Origin: Verrucomicrobia bacterium ADurb.Bin018 | GTDB lineage: Bacteria > Verrucomicrobiota > Kiritimatiellia > CAIQIC01 > Lenti-01 | Assembly: GCA_002071335.1 (NCBI GenBank) | Contig: MWEZ01000001.1 | Span: 7,262-71,261 of the forward strand | Direction: 5' to 3' | Length of the DNA: 64,000 bases | Part shown: one piece after another, positions 54,682 through 64,000 of the stretch | Layout: the number at the start of each line of letters is the position of its first letter | Numbering within the stretch: position 1 is the stretch's first letter | Position numbers and translations under genes: made by a program | The notes under the pieces: generated by a model | Seen by the model: only the letters and a program-made list of their open reading frames with translations | The model's database searches: none | Told to the model about the DNA's origin: nothing

Positions 54682-54883
54682 TTGTCCCGCATCATCCTTG
54701 CCGCCCGCGCCCAACGCAAGCGTTTTGGGATTCTACAACCAAGAAAAGCCCCAAGTCGCCGCTGATGTATTTTTCTACAGCCCGACGGATTTATGAACAA
54801 TCTTTGCAAAACAATTATCTCCTATTTTAACGAAATCCTAATGTTGATTATCTTGCAAAATCAAATTCTTTTGCCCACAACTA

Positions 54884-56800
54884 TTGCATGATTTTGGGCA
54901 TCTCGGCATCTCGGCATCTCGGCATCTCGGCATCTCGGCATCTCGGCATCTCGCAAGCCGTATAGCGCGGCATGTTTCTTTCCTAATCACCTCCCTGCTT
55001 CTTCCAATTTCTTCTCTTGCCGCGACGGCTCTGGATGTCCGCGGCGTCTCGGTCACCTTCTCCCCTCAGGGGGATTCTCTTTCTGAAATTATCCGAACGC
55101 TCCATTCCGCCAAGCGGCGCATAGATGTCGCGCCATTTTTCCTAAGCCATACCAATCTGATCGACACCCTCTGCTTCCTGTCGGCCAAGCAAAAGCTCAA
55201 GGTCCGCTGCTTCATGGACCCCGCCTCCACCGCTCCCGCTGAATGTCATGTTCTGGACCGGCTTGCCCAAAACGGCGTCGAGGTCTACGTGGTCCAAGTG
55301 CCCGACGGCAAAATGCACCTCAAGTGCGCCGTCGTGGACGACGGCGTTGTCATCACCGGAGCAGCCAATTGGACGGTTCGCGGATTCGAAAACAATGTCG
55401 AGGATTCTCTCTTTCTGCAATCCCCGGCCCTTGCTCAAGCCTATCGTGCGCGTATGGATCGTTTGCTGCCAATTTCCGAACTTTATCATGCCCCCCGCCT
55501 TGACGACTCCGAACGCTTCGAGTCCAAGCCCAGCAAGCTTTCCCAAAGTAAACCCCCGACGCTGACATATGCCGCCCCGCGGCTCCAGCGCTTCAGCTCC
55601 GTCCGATCCGCCCGCGTCTTCTTCTCCTCTGATTCCGAACCCGACAACGGATTGTTGGCATCCGAAACCATTCTATCCCGCATTCACGCCGCCCAGAAGC
55701 GGGTGGATGTCGCCATGTATCTGCTGGTTGAACCTACGCTTGTCGAGGCCCTCGCCCAAAAAGCAACCGAGGGCAAAGTGCCCGTTCGCCTGCTTGTCGA
55801 TTCCGGAATGCTCGACTCTTCTTCGCGAACCGTGCTGGAAACACTCGTGGCCGCCGGGGTGCAGGTGAATTGGCTGGGCAACGAGAAGTTCAGTATGCAT
55901 CTTAAGACGCTTGTCCTGGACGAAGCGCAGGTCTGGACCGGCTCCGCCAACTGGTCTCAATCCGCCTTCGCGCACAACATCGAGGATTTGGTTCTCATTG
56001 AGTCCGCCGATCTGGCGCGCGCCTATACCCGGCACTTCGACACCCTCCATGCCGCCGCAACCCCTTTCCAACCCGCTTCTCTTTCGGTTTCAGCACCATC
56101 CAATGCCCCGGCCTCCGCCGAATTCCCCATCGGCTTGCCACCCACCGGTCCCCGCACCAACTGGCCGTCTGGCCTTCAAGACGTCGCCAGCGAAGACCTC
56201 CTTCTTTCCGCCTCCGCCCGCTATCTCGCCGACGAAGAATACCTCCCCGCCTTGCTGGACCTGATCCGAAATGCCCATCAATCGGTCCTTGCCTCCATGT
56301 ATGTCATGGGCGAGCCCCAAAAGGACCAACCCAACCTCAACCAACTCACCGCCGCTCTGGCGCAGGCTGTTCAACGCGGAGTCTATGTCCATCTGGTCCT
56401 CCACATGCCCCTGTCCGAAGCCGTCACCATGAACCAAATCCATCTGGACTGGGCCGAAAATCTCCGCGCCAAAGGCGTGGATGTCCGCTTGCATATCCCC
56501 ACCATCCCCCTGCATGAAAAAGTCGTTGTCGTGGACCTTGCCAAAGTCCTGATCGGCTCCCACAATTGGTCCGAAGGCGCCCTCTCCAGCCAAAAAGTCA
56601 CTGAATCCGGCGTCCTGCTCGTCCTGCCCCAACAGGATCGGCGGCTGGCCGACCATATCCTAAACCGCGAATCCATCCGCGACATGCGCACCCCTGCGCT
56701 TTGGCAGGAGGAGTTGCGCACCCTCCGGCAACTGGGAAACACTTCCGGCAAGGAACGCGACACCCTCCTCGATCAGCTCGAACCGGAGGAAATGCCGTGA
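54884..56800 (+). CDS. secreted phospholipase D/nuclease family protein with three tandem HKD domains
   Basis: HLKCAVVD...GAANWT, HLKTLVLD...GSANWS and HEKVVVVD...GSHNWS. Hydrophobic signal-like segment after the repeat-encoded N-terminus. Only a TTG at 54884 is in frame upstream, so the start is uncertain. Confidence 0.55.
   Translation: MHDFGHLGISASRHLGISASRHLASRIARHVSFLITSLLLPISSLAATALDVRGVSVTFSPQGDSLSEIIRTLHSAKRRIDVAPFFLSHTNLIDTLCFLSAKQKLKVRCFMDPASTAPAECHVLDRLAQNGVEVYVVQVPDGKMHLKCAVVDDGVVITGAANWTVRGFENNVEDSLFLQSPALAQAYRARMDRLLPISELYHAPRLDDSERFESKPSKLSQSKPPTLTYAAPRLQRFSSVRSARVFFSSDSEPDNGLLASETILSRIHAAQKRVDVAMYLLVEPTLVEALAQKATEGKVPVRLLVDSGMLDSSSRTVLETLVAAGVQVNWLGNEKFSMHLKTLVLDEAQVWTGSANWSQSAFAHNIEDLVLIESADLARAYTRHFDTLHAAATPFQPASLSVSAPSNAPASAEFPIGLPPTGPRTNWPSGLQDVASEDLLLSASARYLADEEYLPALLDLIRNAHQSVLASMYVMGEPQKDQPNLNQLTAALAQAVQRGVYVHLVLHMPLSEAVTMNQIHLDWAENLRAKGVDVRLHIPTIPLHEKVVVVDLAKVLIGSHNWSEGALSSQKVTESGVLLVLPQQDRRLADHILNRESIRDMRTPALWQEELRTLRQLGNTSGKERDTLLDQLEPEEMP
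54897..54953. repeat. octanucleotide tandem repeat (CATCTCGG), about 7 copies, inside the 5' end of the triple-HKD PLD gene
   Basis: Read directly. The unit length is not a multiple of 3. The in-frame translation is HLGISASR HLGISASR. Confidence 0.85.
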
Positions 56801-57576
56801 GCCTCCGCTATTCCCTCCTTTCACTCCTCTTGTTGGCTCGGGCGACCTTCGGCCTAGCCCAAACCAACCCTTCCGACCTGATTCTCCTCCGCAACGGACG
56901 CGAGCTTTCCGGTCGCCTCATTCAGGAAACCTCCGCCGGATATGTTCTCATCCCGGCGGGGGCCCCCACCCAAATCCAGCGCATTCCCCGCGAAGCCACT
57001 GCTTACGTCCTCTATGCCGATCCAGCCCAGGCCGCCAAACTCCTCGGCCTCGACTCCGTCGCCCGAAATCTCTCCAAAGCCCCCGCCCCCGCCGAAGTTC
57101 GCCTCCTCGCCGCCGAACCCTTCGGCAAAGCCCTCCTCGAAGCCGCCCGTTCGGCCACTAACTCCATCTGGATTTCCGCCTACTACTTCAGCGACAGCCG
57201 CGCCGCTCCCATCAAAGATTTCTACGCTACCCTCCGCGAAAAAGCCGCTGCCGGCGTCGAGGTTGTCATCCTCGTCGAAAATAGCACCGCCTCGCCGCCC
57301 GCCATGCGCCGCGCCAATGCCAATTTCGCCGCCCAACTCTCCGGCGACGGCATCCAAACCCTCCTCTGGAGCGGCACCAACAAAGCCCTCCATAAAAAAC
57401 TCGTCATCATCGACGGACGAATCCTTTTGCTCGGCAGCTCCAACCTCTCCCTTTCCGGCACCTACGGCAGCATCGAAATGAACATCCTCACCGAGGCCCC
57501 CCACCTCGTTCAACCCGCCATTGCCGACTTCCAGCGCCTCTGCACCCAACTCAAGCAACGACAGGCTGCCCCATGA
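56797..57576 (+). CDS. secreted single-HKD phospholipase D family protein
   Basis: HKKLVIIDGRILLLGSSNLS. Signal peptide. A GTG start overlaps the upstream TGA (GTGA). Confidence 0.55.
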   Translation: MSLRYSLLSLLLLARATFGLAQTNPSDLILLRNGRELSGRLIQETSAGYVLIPAGAPTQIQRIPREATAYVLYADPAQAAKLLGLDSVARNLSKAPAPAEVRLLAAEPFGKALLEAARSATNSIWISAYYFSDSRAAPIKDFYATLREKAAAGVEVVILVENSTASPPAMRRANANFAAQLSGDGIQTLLWSGTNKALHKKLVIIDGRILLLGSSNLSLSGTYGSIEMNILTEAPHLVQPAIADFQRLCTQLKQRQAAP

Positions 57577-58265
57577 CCTCCCTGCGCACAACTGGCTACG
57601 CTTTGTTTACCCTCTTGACTCTGCTCCAACCGCTCTCTGCCGCCCCAAAACTGATCATCAATCCCGAGACGTTCGATTTCGGCGAGGTACCCTCCGGTGA
57701 ATCCGTTCAGGCCACCTTTACCCTCCGCAACGCTGGCGATGAACCCCTCCACATCAACCATGTCCGCACCAGTTGCGGTTGCACCACCTCTCGCCTGGAC
57801 AAACGCGAACTTGCTCCCGGAGAAGAAACCCCGCTAACCGCCACCCTTTCCCTCAGAAACCGCAGCGGCCCCCAACACCAGCGCGTCACCATCGCCTCCA
57901 ACGATCCGGATGCCCCCTCCAGGCAGGCCCACATCCAGGGAACCGCCGTCCAATACCTCACGTTGACCCCCTCCGCCGTCCTACTTTTCTCCGCCCCCCA
58001 AGGGCAATCCATTACCCGAACTCTTTCGCTCCATTCCGAAAATCAGACCCCCTTCCAACTTCTCTCCATCGAGGTCACCCATCCCAATCTTACCGTCGCG
58101 GTCACGCCGGTCTCCCCCAGCTCCTACCGCCTCGCCCTCACCATCCCCGCCACCTGGCCCGCCGGACGCATCAACGAATCCTTACGCATCCACACCGACC
58201 ATCCCCACGCCCCGATGCTGACTTGCTCCATCACCGGAACCCTGCAAACTGGAGACAACCCATGA
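57573..58265 (+). CDS. DUF1573 domain secreted protein
   Basis: FDFGEV...FTLRNAGDEPLHINHVRTSCGCT signature. ATGA overlap with the upstream gene. Confidence 0.65.
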   Translation: MTSLRTTGYALFTLLTLLQPLSAAPKLIINPETFDFGEVPSGESVQATFTLRNAGDEPLHINHVRTSCGCTTSRLDKRELAPGEETPLTATLSLRNRSGPQHQRVTIASNDPDAPSRQAHIQGTAVQYLTLTPSAVLLFSAPQGQSITRTLSLHSENQTPFQLLSIEVTHPNLTVAVTPVSPSSYRLALTIPATWPAGRINESLRIHTDHPHAPMLTCSITGTLQTGDNP

Positions 58266-63626: not shown

Positions 63627-63649
63627 ACCGGCCAAGTCAAAGGTGTGCA

Positions 63650-63940
63650 GCACGTCCCGATTCTGACTTGCTCTATCACCGGAACCCTGCAAACTGGAAA
63701 CAACCCATGATCCCGCACCGCCCATGGCCGCTATTCGCCCTGTCACTCGCCCTCTGGACCGGAGTCTCCTCCGCCCAGACGTGGACCACGGTCTGGACAC
63801 TCGACTCCGCCCCCGCCACAAAAGTGATCGTCAAGGCTGGCAACCACAAATCACCAACCAACTGCTATCCCTGCAAAGAGTGGGAAGACTACGGCGACGG
63901 CACCGGCAAGTGGGTTCTCTATCCTCGTGGTACCACGCCG
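63650..63940. repeat. conserved 5' module copy 3 (shorter DUF1573 remnant, ATGA, signal peptide, conserved N-terminal domain with a substituted middle segment)
   Basis: CCCGATTCTGACTTGCTCTATCACCGGAACCCTGCAAACTGGAAACAACCCATGATCCCGCACCGCCCATGG matches copies 1 and 2. Confidence 0.7.
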
Positions 63941-64000
63941 AATAGATGCGCCGGCGACACCACGGACTACACCTGCAAGGAATGCGACGGCAAGGGAGAA
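63707..64000 (+). CDS. third paralogous secreted Cys-rich protein (partial, runs off window end)
   Basis: Manual translation MIPHRPWPLFALSLALWTGVSSAQTWTTVW...NCYPCKEWEDYGDGTGKWVLYPRGT...DYTCKECDGKGE. Absent from the ORF track because it has no stop codon in the window. Confidence 0.5.
   Translation, partial: MIPHRPWPLFALSLALWTGVSSAQTWTTVWTLDSAPATKVIVKAGNHKSPTNCYPCKEWEDYGDGTGKWVLYPRGTTPNRCAGDTTDYTCKECDGKGE

Follow-up and report, generated by a model that had tools for sequence, protein, structure and literature searches.

A probable Sec-dependent polymorphic toxin-immunity locus behind two PLD-like genes in a Kiritimatiellia bacterium

The DNA analysed here, in the following called the window, is a stretch of 64,000 nucleotides (nt) from Verrucomicrobia bacterium ADurb.Bin018 (contig MWEZ01000001.1), and the subject is an array of genes for exported proteins which begins near its right end and which we read as a probable polymorphic toxin-immunity locus. 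An exact-protein look-up gave metagenome contigs which are 99.9% identical to the window and extend beyond its end; the main contig is L001, and a window coordinate is the L001 coordinate plus 51106. Related loci and contigs carry L labels and related proteins carry P labels. The record names place the source in wastewater or sludge. The locus (Table 1) starts with a four-gene unit consisting of PLD3, which codes for a protein with three phospholipase D (PLD)-like domains, PLD1, which codes for a protein with one such domain, a DUF1573 gene, and the gene for a small Cys-rich putative toxin. The four genes are joined by 4-nt overlaps (GTGA, ATGA and ATGA), and further toxin cassettes then follow. 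The original prediction for this region had listed a triple-HKD PLD, a single-HKD PLD, a DUF1573 protein, a phospholipase A2 (PLA2)-like protein and a HEAT-repeat lipoprotein beside an OppD-like ABC ATPase gene, and a further two-HKD PLD elsewhere in the window. All of these were recovered with Pfam. Secretion signals had been assigned to nearly all of the proteins, and an N-terminal hydrophobic signal or anchor is present in every one of the locus proteins.

The region is built around a direct repeat of ~390 nt, which is absent from the original prediction. It occurs in three copies in the window and in five in the full locus. Each copy, here called a head copy, opens with the final ~75 nt of the DUF1573 gene; an ATG follows, then the sequence for a signal peptide and for an N-terminal domain of ~80 amino acids (aa) which is rich in Cys. 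The copies are 64-96% identical to each other, and after each of them the sequence diverges completely. Every toxin consists of the common signal peptide and Cys-rich head followed by one of several unrelated C-terminal domains. The first cassette has toxin T1 with a PLA2-like domain, followed by I1a (450 aa), I1b (170 aa) and the HEAT protein I1c. The second has T2, with the motif RHEQYHKDH, followed by I2, and the third has T3, with the motif THENVHVEQL, followed by the HEAT protein I3. In the fourth, T4 resembles T3 and is split by a stop codon, and it is followed by the HEAT protein I4. The fifth has T5, with galaxin-like Cys repeats and the motif TRHEETHK, followed by I5, which is a homologue of I2. 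To the 3' side of T5/I5 lie a 67-nt relic of a T1-like C-terminus, one copy of a 46-nt repeat, a gene for an IS30-type transposase and a rhomboid gene. Decayed cassettes are found at several places: T4 is broken by its stop codon, x164 and x178 of L029 have no head, and the T1-like relic stands at the end of the array.

Table 1. Features of the locus and its surroundings; positions are those of the window unless L001 is named.
Feature	Position	Strand	Remarks
Separate protein with two PLDc_2 domains	8567-9952	-	461 aa, E 1.7e-27; host-typical GC3 of 0.78
OppD-like ABC ATPase	53686-54714	-	Pfam
46-nt direct repeat, left copy	54678-54723		OppD-like 5' end and leader; 93% identical to right copy
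Octanucleotide repeat (GGCATCTC) x7	54897-54952	+	directly 3' of ATG 54888, at the PLD3 5' end
PLD3	54884-56800	+	exported; three PLDc_2 domains (Pfam, E 8e-66), each with intact HxKx4D; 638-aa open reading frame
PLD1	56797-57576	+	exported; one PLDc_2 (HKD) domain; GTG start overlaps PLD3 stop (GTGA)
DUF1573 (Ig-like) exported protein	57573-58265	+	Pfam E 1.5e-24; ATG overlaps PLD1 stop (ATGA)
Head repeat copy 1	58187-58573	+	DUF1573 3' end, ATG, signal peptide, Cys-rich domain AQTWTTVWTP...NCYPCKEWEAYGDGTGKW
Putative toxin T1	58262-59041	+	head and PLA2-like C-terminal domain; ATG overlaps DUF1573 stop (ATGA)
I1a	59071-60423	+	exported; follows T1; no family match; candidate for immunity to the PLA2-like toxin
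I1b	60522-61034	+	membrane-anchored; no family match
I1c	61107-61883	+	lipoprotein with weak HEAT repeats (lipobox VSSC); kin of genes behind type-B toxins
Head repeat copy 2	61993-62379	+	~90% identical to copy 1; carries DUF1573 3'-end relic
Putative toxin T2	62068-62859	+	head and type-C C-terminal domain (CVQRHEQYHKDH ... EECCA)
I2	62850-63626	+	258-aa exported partner of type-C/D toxins; homologous to I5 and to g274, g270, g374 and g248 of L007
Head repeat copy 3 and start of putative toxin T3	63632-64000	+	T3 ATG 63707; type B, HENVH; T3 runs to L001 13662
Relic of T1-like C-terminus	L001 18875-18941		67 nt
46-nt direct repeat, right copy	~70090-70135 (L001 18984-19029)		pair brackets a 15.4-kb block; also in L016
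IS30-type transposase	L001 19060-20109	-	beside right 46-nt copy; in this species only

A search of 5.8 billion proteins with T1 gave only 26 homologues. What these have in common is the head alone (31-50% coverage), and behind it they fall into four C-terminal classes. All homologues with a named source come from Kiritimatiellia metagenome-assembled genomes (MAGs). By these searches the head domain is new and confined to one Kiritimatiellia clade.

The C-terminal domain of T1 matches the profile of prokaryotic PLA2, PF09056, with 31.8 bits (cut-off 29.4; E 2.3e-7). Its motif CCIEHDVNY fits the pattern CxxHxxxY, and the relatives P0005 and P0017 carry CCxxHDLCY. The catalytic motif of the Tox-PLA2 family is listed as CxxH(D)xxxY in the survey of polymorphic toxins by Zhang, de Souza, Anantharaman, Iyer and Aravind (2012; PMC3482391). 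T1 is thus PLA2-like by profile and motif, and phospholipase activity is predicted for it. The type-B toxins end in a HExxH domain of ~230 aa, for which no match to any solved structure was found, and types C and D in a helical HExxH/ExxA domain of ~90 aa, which occurs with or without galaxin-like Cys repeats. In both cases a C-x3-HExxH helix is followed by a later ExxA helix, an arrangement reminiscent of gluzincins. Profile comparison by hhalign relates types C and D at 99% and finds the catalytic domain of the PLA2-like type A unrelated to B, C or D; a match between A and B (88%) is limited to the first ~45-55 residues past the cut point. A shared origin of type B with type C/D was rejected, as hhalign gives it a probability of just 10%. 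Since the first His of the HExxH motif is variable and the profile match between B and C is weak, we grade these domains as probable metal-dependent hydrolases.

The type-B domain is not bound to this head. In a profile search of 1.84 billion representatives it was found, with a conserved HExxH[LV][ED], at the end of unrelated proteins of 469-1048 aa. Of these, the ones read in sequence are exported, and Ig-like repeats are present in most. Among these long proteins are P0077, P0080, P0081, P0092, P0097, P0100 and P0109, in none of which the domain has a Pfam match. At the locus L041 the type-B domain stands behind a second, different type of head.

The pairing of toxins with the genes behind them was examined in L006/7, L010, L023, L027-L036 and L041. 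In the species covered, a type-B toxin is always followed by an exported HEAT-repeat protein, and a type-C/D toxin is always followed by a member of the I2/I5 family. For toxins of the PLA2 class, homology is found between the genes downstream in two other species, which makes two of three downstream genes related. Toxin and partner have also diverged together: compared to L007, T5 and I5 are 65% and 72% identical to g304 and g374, respectively, and T2 and I2 are 58% and 55% identical to g304b and g274. I1c belongs to the family of type-B partners, yet there is no type-B toxin in front of it, and we therefore take it to be an orphan immunity gene. The partner proteins are all exported or lipid-anchored, and for that reason the targets of the toxins are expected in the periplasm or the envelope. 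From the pairing we infer that the partner genes are the cognate immunity genes, a role which is predicted from their sequences and positions.

The repeated heads are the places where strains differ. Strain L003 is L001 minus 12809-14721, which is exactly the stretch between heads 3 and 4. In strain L016 position 7491 of L001 is fused to position 16679, that is head 1 to head 5, and a single cassette is left. In strain L020, the GTDB representative, the array is reordered and reads T2-I2-T5-I5, then a short fragment like T3, then I1b. When the window is compared over 12.9 kb to L001, L002 and L004, all 11 mismatches fall in a 150-nt patch of head 1 (58210-58359), and this clustering points to gene conversion between head copies. 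The repeated heads drive deletion, reordering and gene conversion of cassettes among strains.

The first three genes of the locus are much more constant. In all examined species of the clade the trio PLD3-PLD1-DUF1573 lies upstream of the toxins with the head. Divergent PLD3-PLD1 pairs with 38-46% identity were found in a Kiritimatiellia MAG at a second locus (L024), in a Lentisphaerae MAG (L025) and on a metagenome contig (L041). These three pairs have no DUF1573 gene, the heads are different, and secreted Cys-rich proteins directly follow. The regions concerned (L041 9770-13361, L024 10744-13523 and L025 10696-12583) contain toxins with other heads, for example CxxCxxPNPDxDPDNPYESD; these toxins have hydrophobic C-terminal parts with much Gly and Ala, which suggests an action on membranes, and behind them lie HEAT, ankyrin or paralogous ~340-aa exported proteins. 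The HxKx4D motifs, of which PLD3 has three and PLD1 has one, are kept in all orthologues checked by regular expression or by eye, down to the pairs with 38-46% identity, and these 3+1 motifs would be enough for two complete active sites. The best matches of the domains are Nuc, NucT, DrmC and MitoPLD/Zucchini, and matches to cardiolipin synthase are weaker. Since the domains are closer to these proteins than to the classical phospholipases, the name phospholipase is not established for PLD3 and PLD1. A DISARM or other defence system was considered and rejected, because PADLOC matches the PLD genes to DrmC merely as generic single-HKD proteins and no other DISARM genes are present. The strict synteny of the PLD3-PLD1 pair with the toxins speaks for a function in common.

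The 5' end of PLD3 contains a short tandem repeat directly after a start codon. With the 7 copies in the window ATG 54888 is out of frame and meets a stop 25 aa further on; the 638-aa open reading frame has TTG 54884 in phase. A repeat of 7-8 nt is found at the same place of PLD3 in L007, L010, L023, L027-L031, L034-L036 and L041, so that no species of the main clade is without it, and its unit differs between species; in L041 it is the 7-nt unit AGACGCC in 10 copies, in L024 there are two units only and in L025 none. The number of copies varies within species: it is 7, 4 or at least 12 in the species of the window and 7 and 10 in that of L007. L029 has 3 copies, which puts the ATG in frame with an open reading frame of 626 aa, and L030/31, which belong to the same species, have 5 copies and a stop after 43 aa. 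This anatomy is probably that of slipped-strand phase variation, by which expression of the operon would be switched or tuned.

The base composition follows the division of the locus into a constant and a variable part. One-kb windows of the first 54 kb (1-54 kb), with a GC content of 0.626 +/- 0.029, were used as reference for z-scores. Between 55 and 58 kb the GC content is 0.578-0.619 (z -0.3 to -1.7), and the only dip at 54.7-54.9 kb is the intergenic region 54715-54883 of ~170 nt with a GC content of 0.38. The sustained drop starts at ~58.45 kb, inside the PLA2-like gene, and at 59-62 kb the GC content is 0.446-0.480 (z -5.1 to -6.3). The GC content at third codon positions (GC3) is 0.75-0.88 in ordinary genes, 0.68-0.72 in PLD3, PLD1 and the DUF1573 gene, and 0.45-0.61 in the cassettes. 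The original prediction placed an abrupt fall in GC content at 54760-54890 and asked for a windowed calculation of GC and GC3; the fall stands from ~58.45 kb onwards, and the cassettes are atypical in both measures, whereas the 55-58 kb core is marginal in both. The heterogeneity is periodic, as heads have a GC content of 0.58-0.61 and C-terminal domains and downstream genes of 0.45-0.53. The same stepwise pattern was found in all eight loci where it was measured, the core lying 3-10 points under the flanks (mostly 3-6) and the cassettes 10-20. It is a property of the system and not the mark of a recent event at this locus, and we infer that the low GC content of the cassettes is the trace of their circulation as exchangeable modules.

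The same division is seen when the place of the locus is compared between species. In L027, L028, L029-31 and L034-36, which represent at least four related species, the module sits at the same place with the OppD-like gene on its left, and the left neighbourhood consists of H+-PPase, a hypothetical gene, a RimO-like gene, sometimes an FMN reductase gene, and the OppD-like ATPase gene. On the right side the same rhomboid gene follows in L028 and L036, the contigs which reach that far. Identity to the window is 72-79% for PLD3, 74-83% for PLD1 and 64-67% for the DUF1573 protein, and in the flanks 67-74% for the RimO-like protein, 77-81% for the OppD-like protein and 67% for the rhomboid protein. 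Because the locus is the same in the relatives and PLD3 and PLD1 (72-83%) diverge like the flanks (67-81%), the core is ancestral and vertically inherited, and a recent insertion of the core was rejected. The synteny comparison which the original prediction proposed thus finds the region present in relatives, with the core at the same locus, and the foreign, acquired island which it suggested is not supported for the core; the variable part does look foreign and is exchanged by recombination. An insertion into or next to an opp operon, which it also suggested, was rejected as well: the ATPase gene is an orphan in all these species and therefore no scar of an insertion. Exact-protein look-ups of the OppD-like protein were used to search for an empty site and gave array variants only.

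In other species the module lies elsewhere, beside PEPCK in L007, beside GltX in L010 and before an AIR-synthase-family (AIRS) gene in L032. In L007 a 78-nt repeat of the 3' end of PEPCK (87% identical) is found at 268-345 and 14023-14100; its right copy lies just after a stray 3' fragment of a DUF1573 gene at the end of the array and parallels the 46-nt repeat. The 46-nt flanking repeat is missing from L028, where the module has the same locus as in the window, and IS elements are missing from both L028 and L036. The FMN-reductase/flavodoxin-like gene between the RimO-like and the OppD-like genes is present in relatives (L028 2817-5947, L029 2053-5103) and absent in the species of the window (L001 1217-3608). 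The proposed search of the flanks for an integrase or a tRNA gave no tRNA, and at the right edge the transposase, found in this species only; no Rfam family was found at the locus. Promoter-like sites occur at chance level and terminator-like sites just ~2 standard deviations (SD) above it. No relatives of PLD1 or of the type-B toxin were found on plasmids or viral contigs in the plasmid and viral collections.

We consider it likely that the region represents a polymorphic toxin-immunity locus with Sec-dependent export, in a Kiritimatiellia bacterium living in wastewater or digester communities. The interpretation follows from the modularity of heads and C-terminal domains, the pairing with partner genes, the orphan and broken cassettes, the recombination at the heads and the portable type-B domain. 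In such a system the toxins would cross the periplasm of the producer and hit competitors in their periplasm or envelope. Phospholipids would be the target of the PLA2-like domain, some other target would be hydrolysed by the HExxH domains, and the exported HEAT-repeat proteins and other downstream proteins would neutralise the toxins. PLD3 and PLD1 might tentatively be given an accessory function, for example permeabilisation of the outer membrane or release of toxin, by analogy to colicin release via activation of a phospholipase, and the DUF1573 protein might, equally tentatively, be an adaptor specific to the QTWTTVWTP head. Some points weigh against this interpretation. There are no dedicated secretion-system genes in the locus by which a Sec-exported toxin would get out of a diderm cell and into a target. 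No homology was detected between I1a and the genes behind other PLA2-like toxins, and the first His of HExxH is replaced in a few members. In the species of the window the alleles with 7 and 4 repeat copies share one frame, which is as compatible with a TTG start and translation of the repeat as with an ON/OFF switch. Finally, the part of the PLD pair in the toxin system is argued from synteny and is put forward with low confidence.

The island model of the original prediction, a recent horizontal acquisition in or next to an opp operon with secreted phospholipases, both PLDs and PLA2, attacking membranes, can draw on the strongly atypical GC and GC3 of the cassettes, on the 46-nt repeat which brackets a 15.4-kb block with a transposase at its right edge, and on the occurrence of the module at other loci, in L007 with flanking repeats. 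It is very unlikely all the same, since the module is found at this locus in at least four related species and diverges there at the rate of the flanks, the core is within 1.7 SD of the reference in GC content, every species shows the same GC step, the ATPase gene is kept as an orphan, and there is neither a tRNA nor a match in the plasmid and viral collections. Of the lipid-targeting arsenal there remain exported, probably antagonistic proteins, one of which is PLA2-like; to speak of multiple phospholipases is too much, as the PLDs are of the Nuc/DrmC type and have no immunity gene and only one of the five cassettes is PLA2-like. The Cys-rich proteins with heads could also be venom-like effectors against eukaryotes, either protist grazers or hosts, with partners that merely protect the periplasm of the producer during export. 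A motif like that of secreted PLA2, the galaxin-like Cys repeats and the many cysteines able to form disulfides fit with this, as does export by a signal peptide only, with no apparatus for contact-dependent delivery; periplasmic immunity proteins would be needed for self-protection in transit, too. It should be noted, however, that turnover of cassettes at the strain level, the orphan I1c and the strict co-variation of toxin and partner are the signature of a conflict among close relatives, that orphan immunity genes make no sense if self-protection in transit is all they serve, and that the habitat is wastewater or sludge, and we regard an anti-eukaryotic role as improbable.

A further question is whether PLD3 and PLD1 belong to the toxin system at all. 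They could be unrelated to it and serve, for instance, as nucleases of the periplasm in DNA uptake or as enzymes of lipid turnover, and the array would then only use the 3' end of the DUF1573 gene as a landing pad for recombination. Their best matches are indeed the nucleases Nuc/NucT and DrmC, and the core diverges like vertically inherited genes. This explanation has little probability in our opinion, since the pairs with 38-46% identity, which have other heads and no DUF1573, still stand directly before genes like those for secreted toxins and immunity proteins, the genes are coupled by 4-nt overlaps, and the module relocates as one unit. At the other extreme, a heteromeric PLD3+PLD1 complex with 3+1 HKD motifs could be an unrecognised export or release machinery for Sec-dependent polymorphic toxins in diderm bacteria of the Planctomycetes-Verrucomicrobia-Chlamydiae (PVC) group (Kiritimatiellia and Lentisphaerae), with the DUF1573 protein as a head-specific adaptor and slippage of the 7-8-nt repeat switching the weapon on in a subpopulation. 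We find this extension of the toxin-immunity reading rather doubtful, though it deserves to be stated.

How does a toxin-immunity locus of this kind compare to known systems? Bacterial antagonism has a number of well-studied forms. In type VI secretion system (T6SS) pairs which act in the periplasm, Tle phospholipases with Tli and Tae/Tge with Tai/Tgi, the immunity gene is adjacent and codes for a periplasmic protein or a lipoprotein. The locus resembles these pairs in that its toxins are predicted lipases or hydrolases with an adjacent periplasmic or lipoprotein partner. It differs in having neither T6SS genes nor fusions to PAAR, VgrG or Hcp, and in the Sec signal peptides of its toxins, which are lacking in T6SS effectors. 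In colicin and other bacteriocin operons the release (lysis) gene activates the outer-membrane phospholipase A, and production is costly and heterogeneous. By analogy a toxin, an immunity protein and an enzyme of envelope lipids may be linked in both cases, and production here may likewise be costly and heterogeneous. Here the enzymes are of the HKD/PLD type and encoded in the operon, unlike those of colicins, control would be by slippage of a repeat and not by SOS, and release is hypothetical. The opa genes of Neisseria show phase variation by a pentamer in the region coding for the signal peptide. Common to both is a repeat with a unit which is not a multiple of 3, close behind the start codon in the gene of an exported protein, with a copy number varying between strains. 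Unlike in opa, the units are of 7-8 nt, which is unusual, the bacteria are free-living members of the PVC group, the gene is the first of a toxin operon, and in the species of the window the alleles found all preserve the frame.

The closest relatives are the polymorphic toxins exported by Sec and the type II secretion system (T2SS). Tox-PLA2, Imm-HEAT, Imm-ank and export by a signal peptide only are all recognised among polymorphic toxin systems, and Table 1 of the 2012 survey, on secretion pathways, leaves the Sec/T2SS route without signature neighbourhood genes (PMC3482391). The locus shares with these systems a constant N-terminus, swappable C-termini, an immunity gene directly downstream, extra and orphan cassettes made by recombination, and toxin domains found also with other N-termini (PMC3482391). 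It is unlike them in that its toxins, of 250-370 aa, are very short and have neither RHS nor filamentous repeats, in that its downstream cassettes are not orphans truncated at the 5' end and have the ATG, signal peptide and head complete, and in that the head is new, all immunity proteins are exported, and PLD3-PLD1(-DUF1573) with a short repeat at its 5' end lies upstream. Literature searches found no description of antagonistic systems of Kiritimatiellia and no paper linking either Kiritimatiellia or DUF1573 to polymorphic toxins.

Wastewater, digesters and guts commonly harbour Kiritimatiellia and their relatives, and the phylum is poorly studied. The locus family would provide a large set of natural toxin-immunity pairs, with at least two toxin domains which have no matching family, one of them with a confidently predicted structure that matches no solved fold. 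For the scanning of genomes the lesson is that a step in GC content may mark the variable half of an ancestral locus instead of an acquired island. If the PLD pair is a device for release or delivery, it would explain how toxins with only a signal peptide leave a cell with two membranes, which is a poorly understood step.

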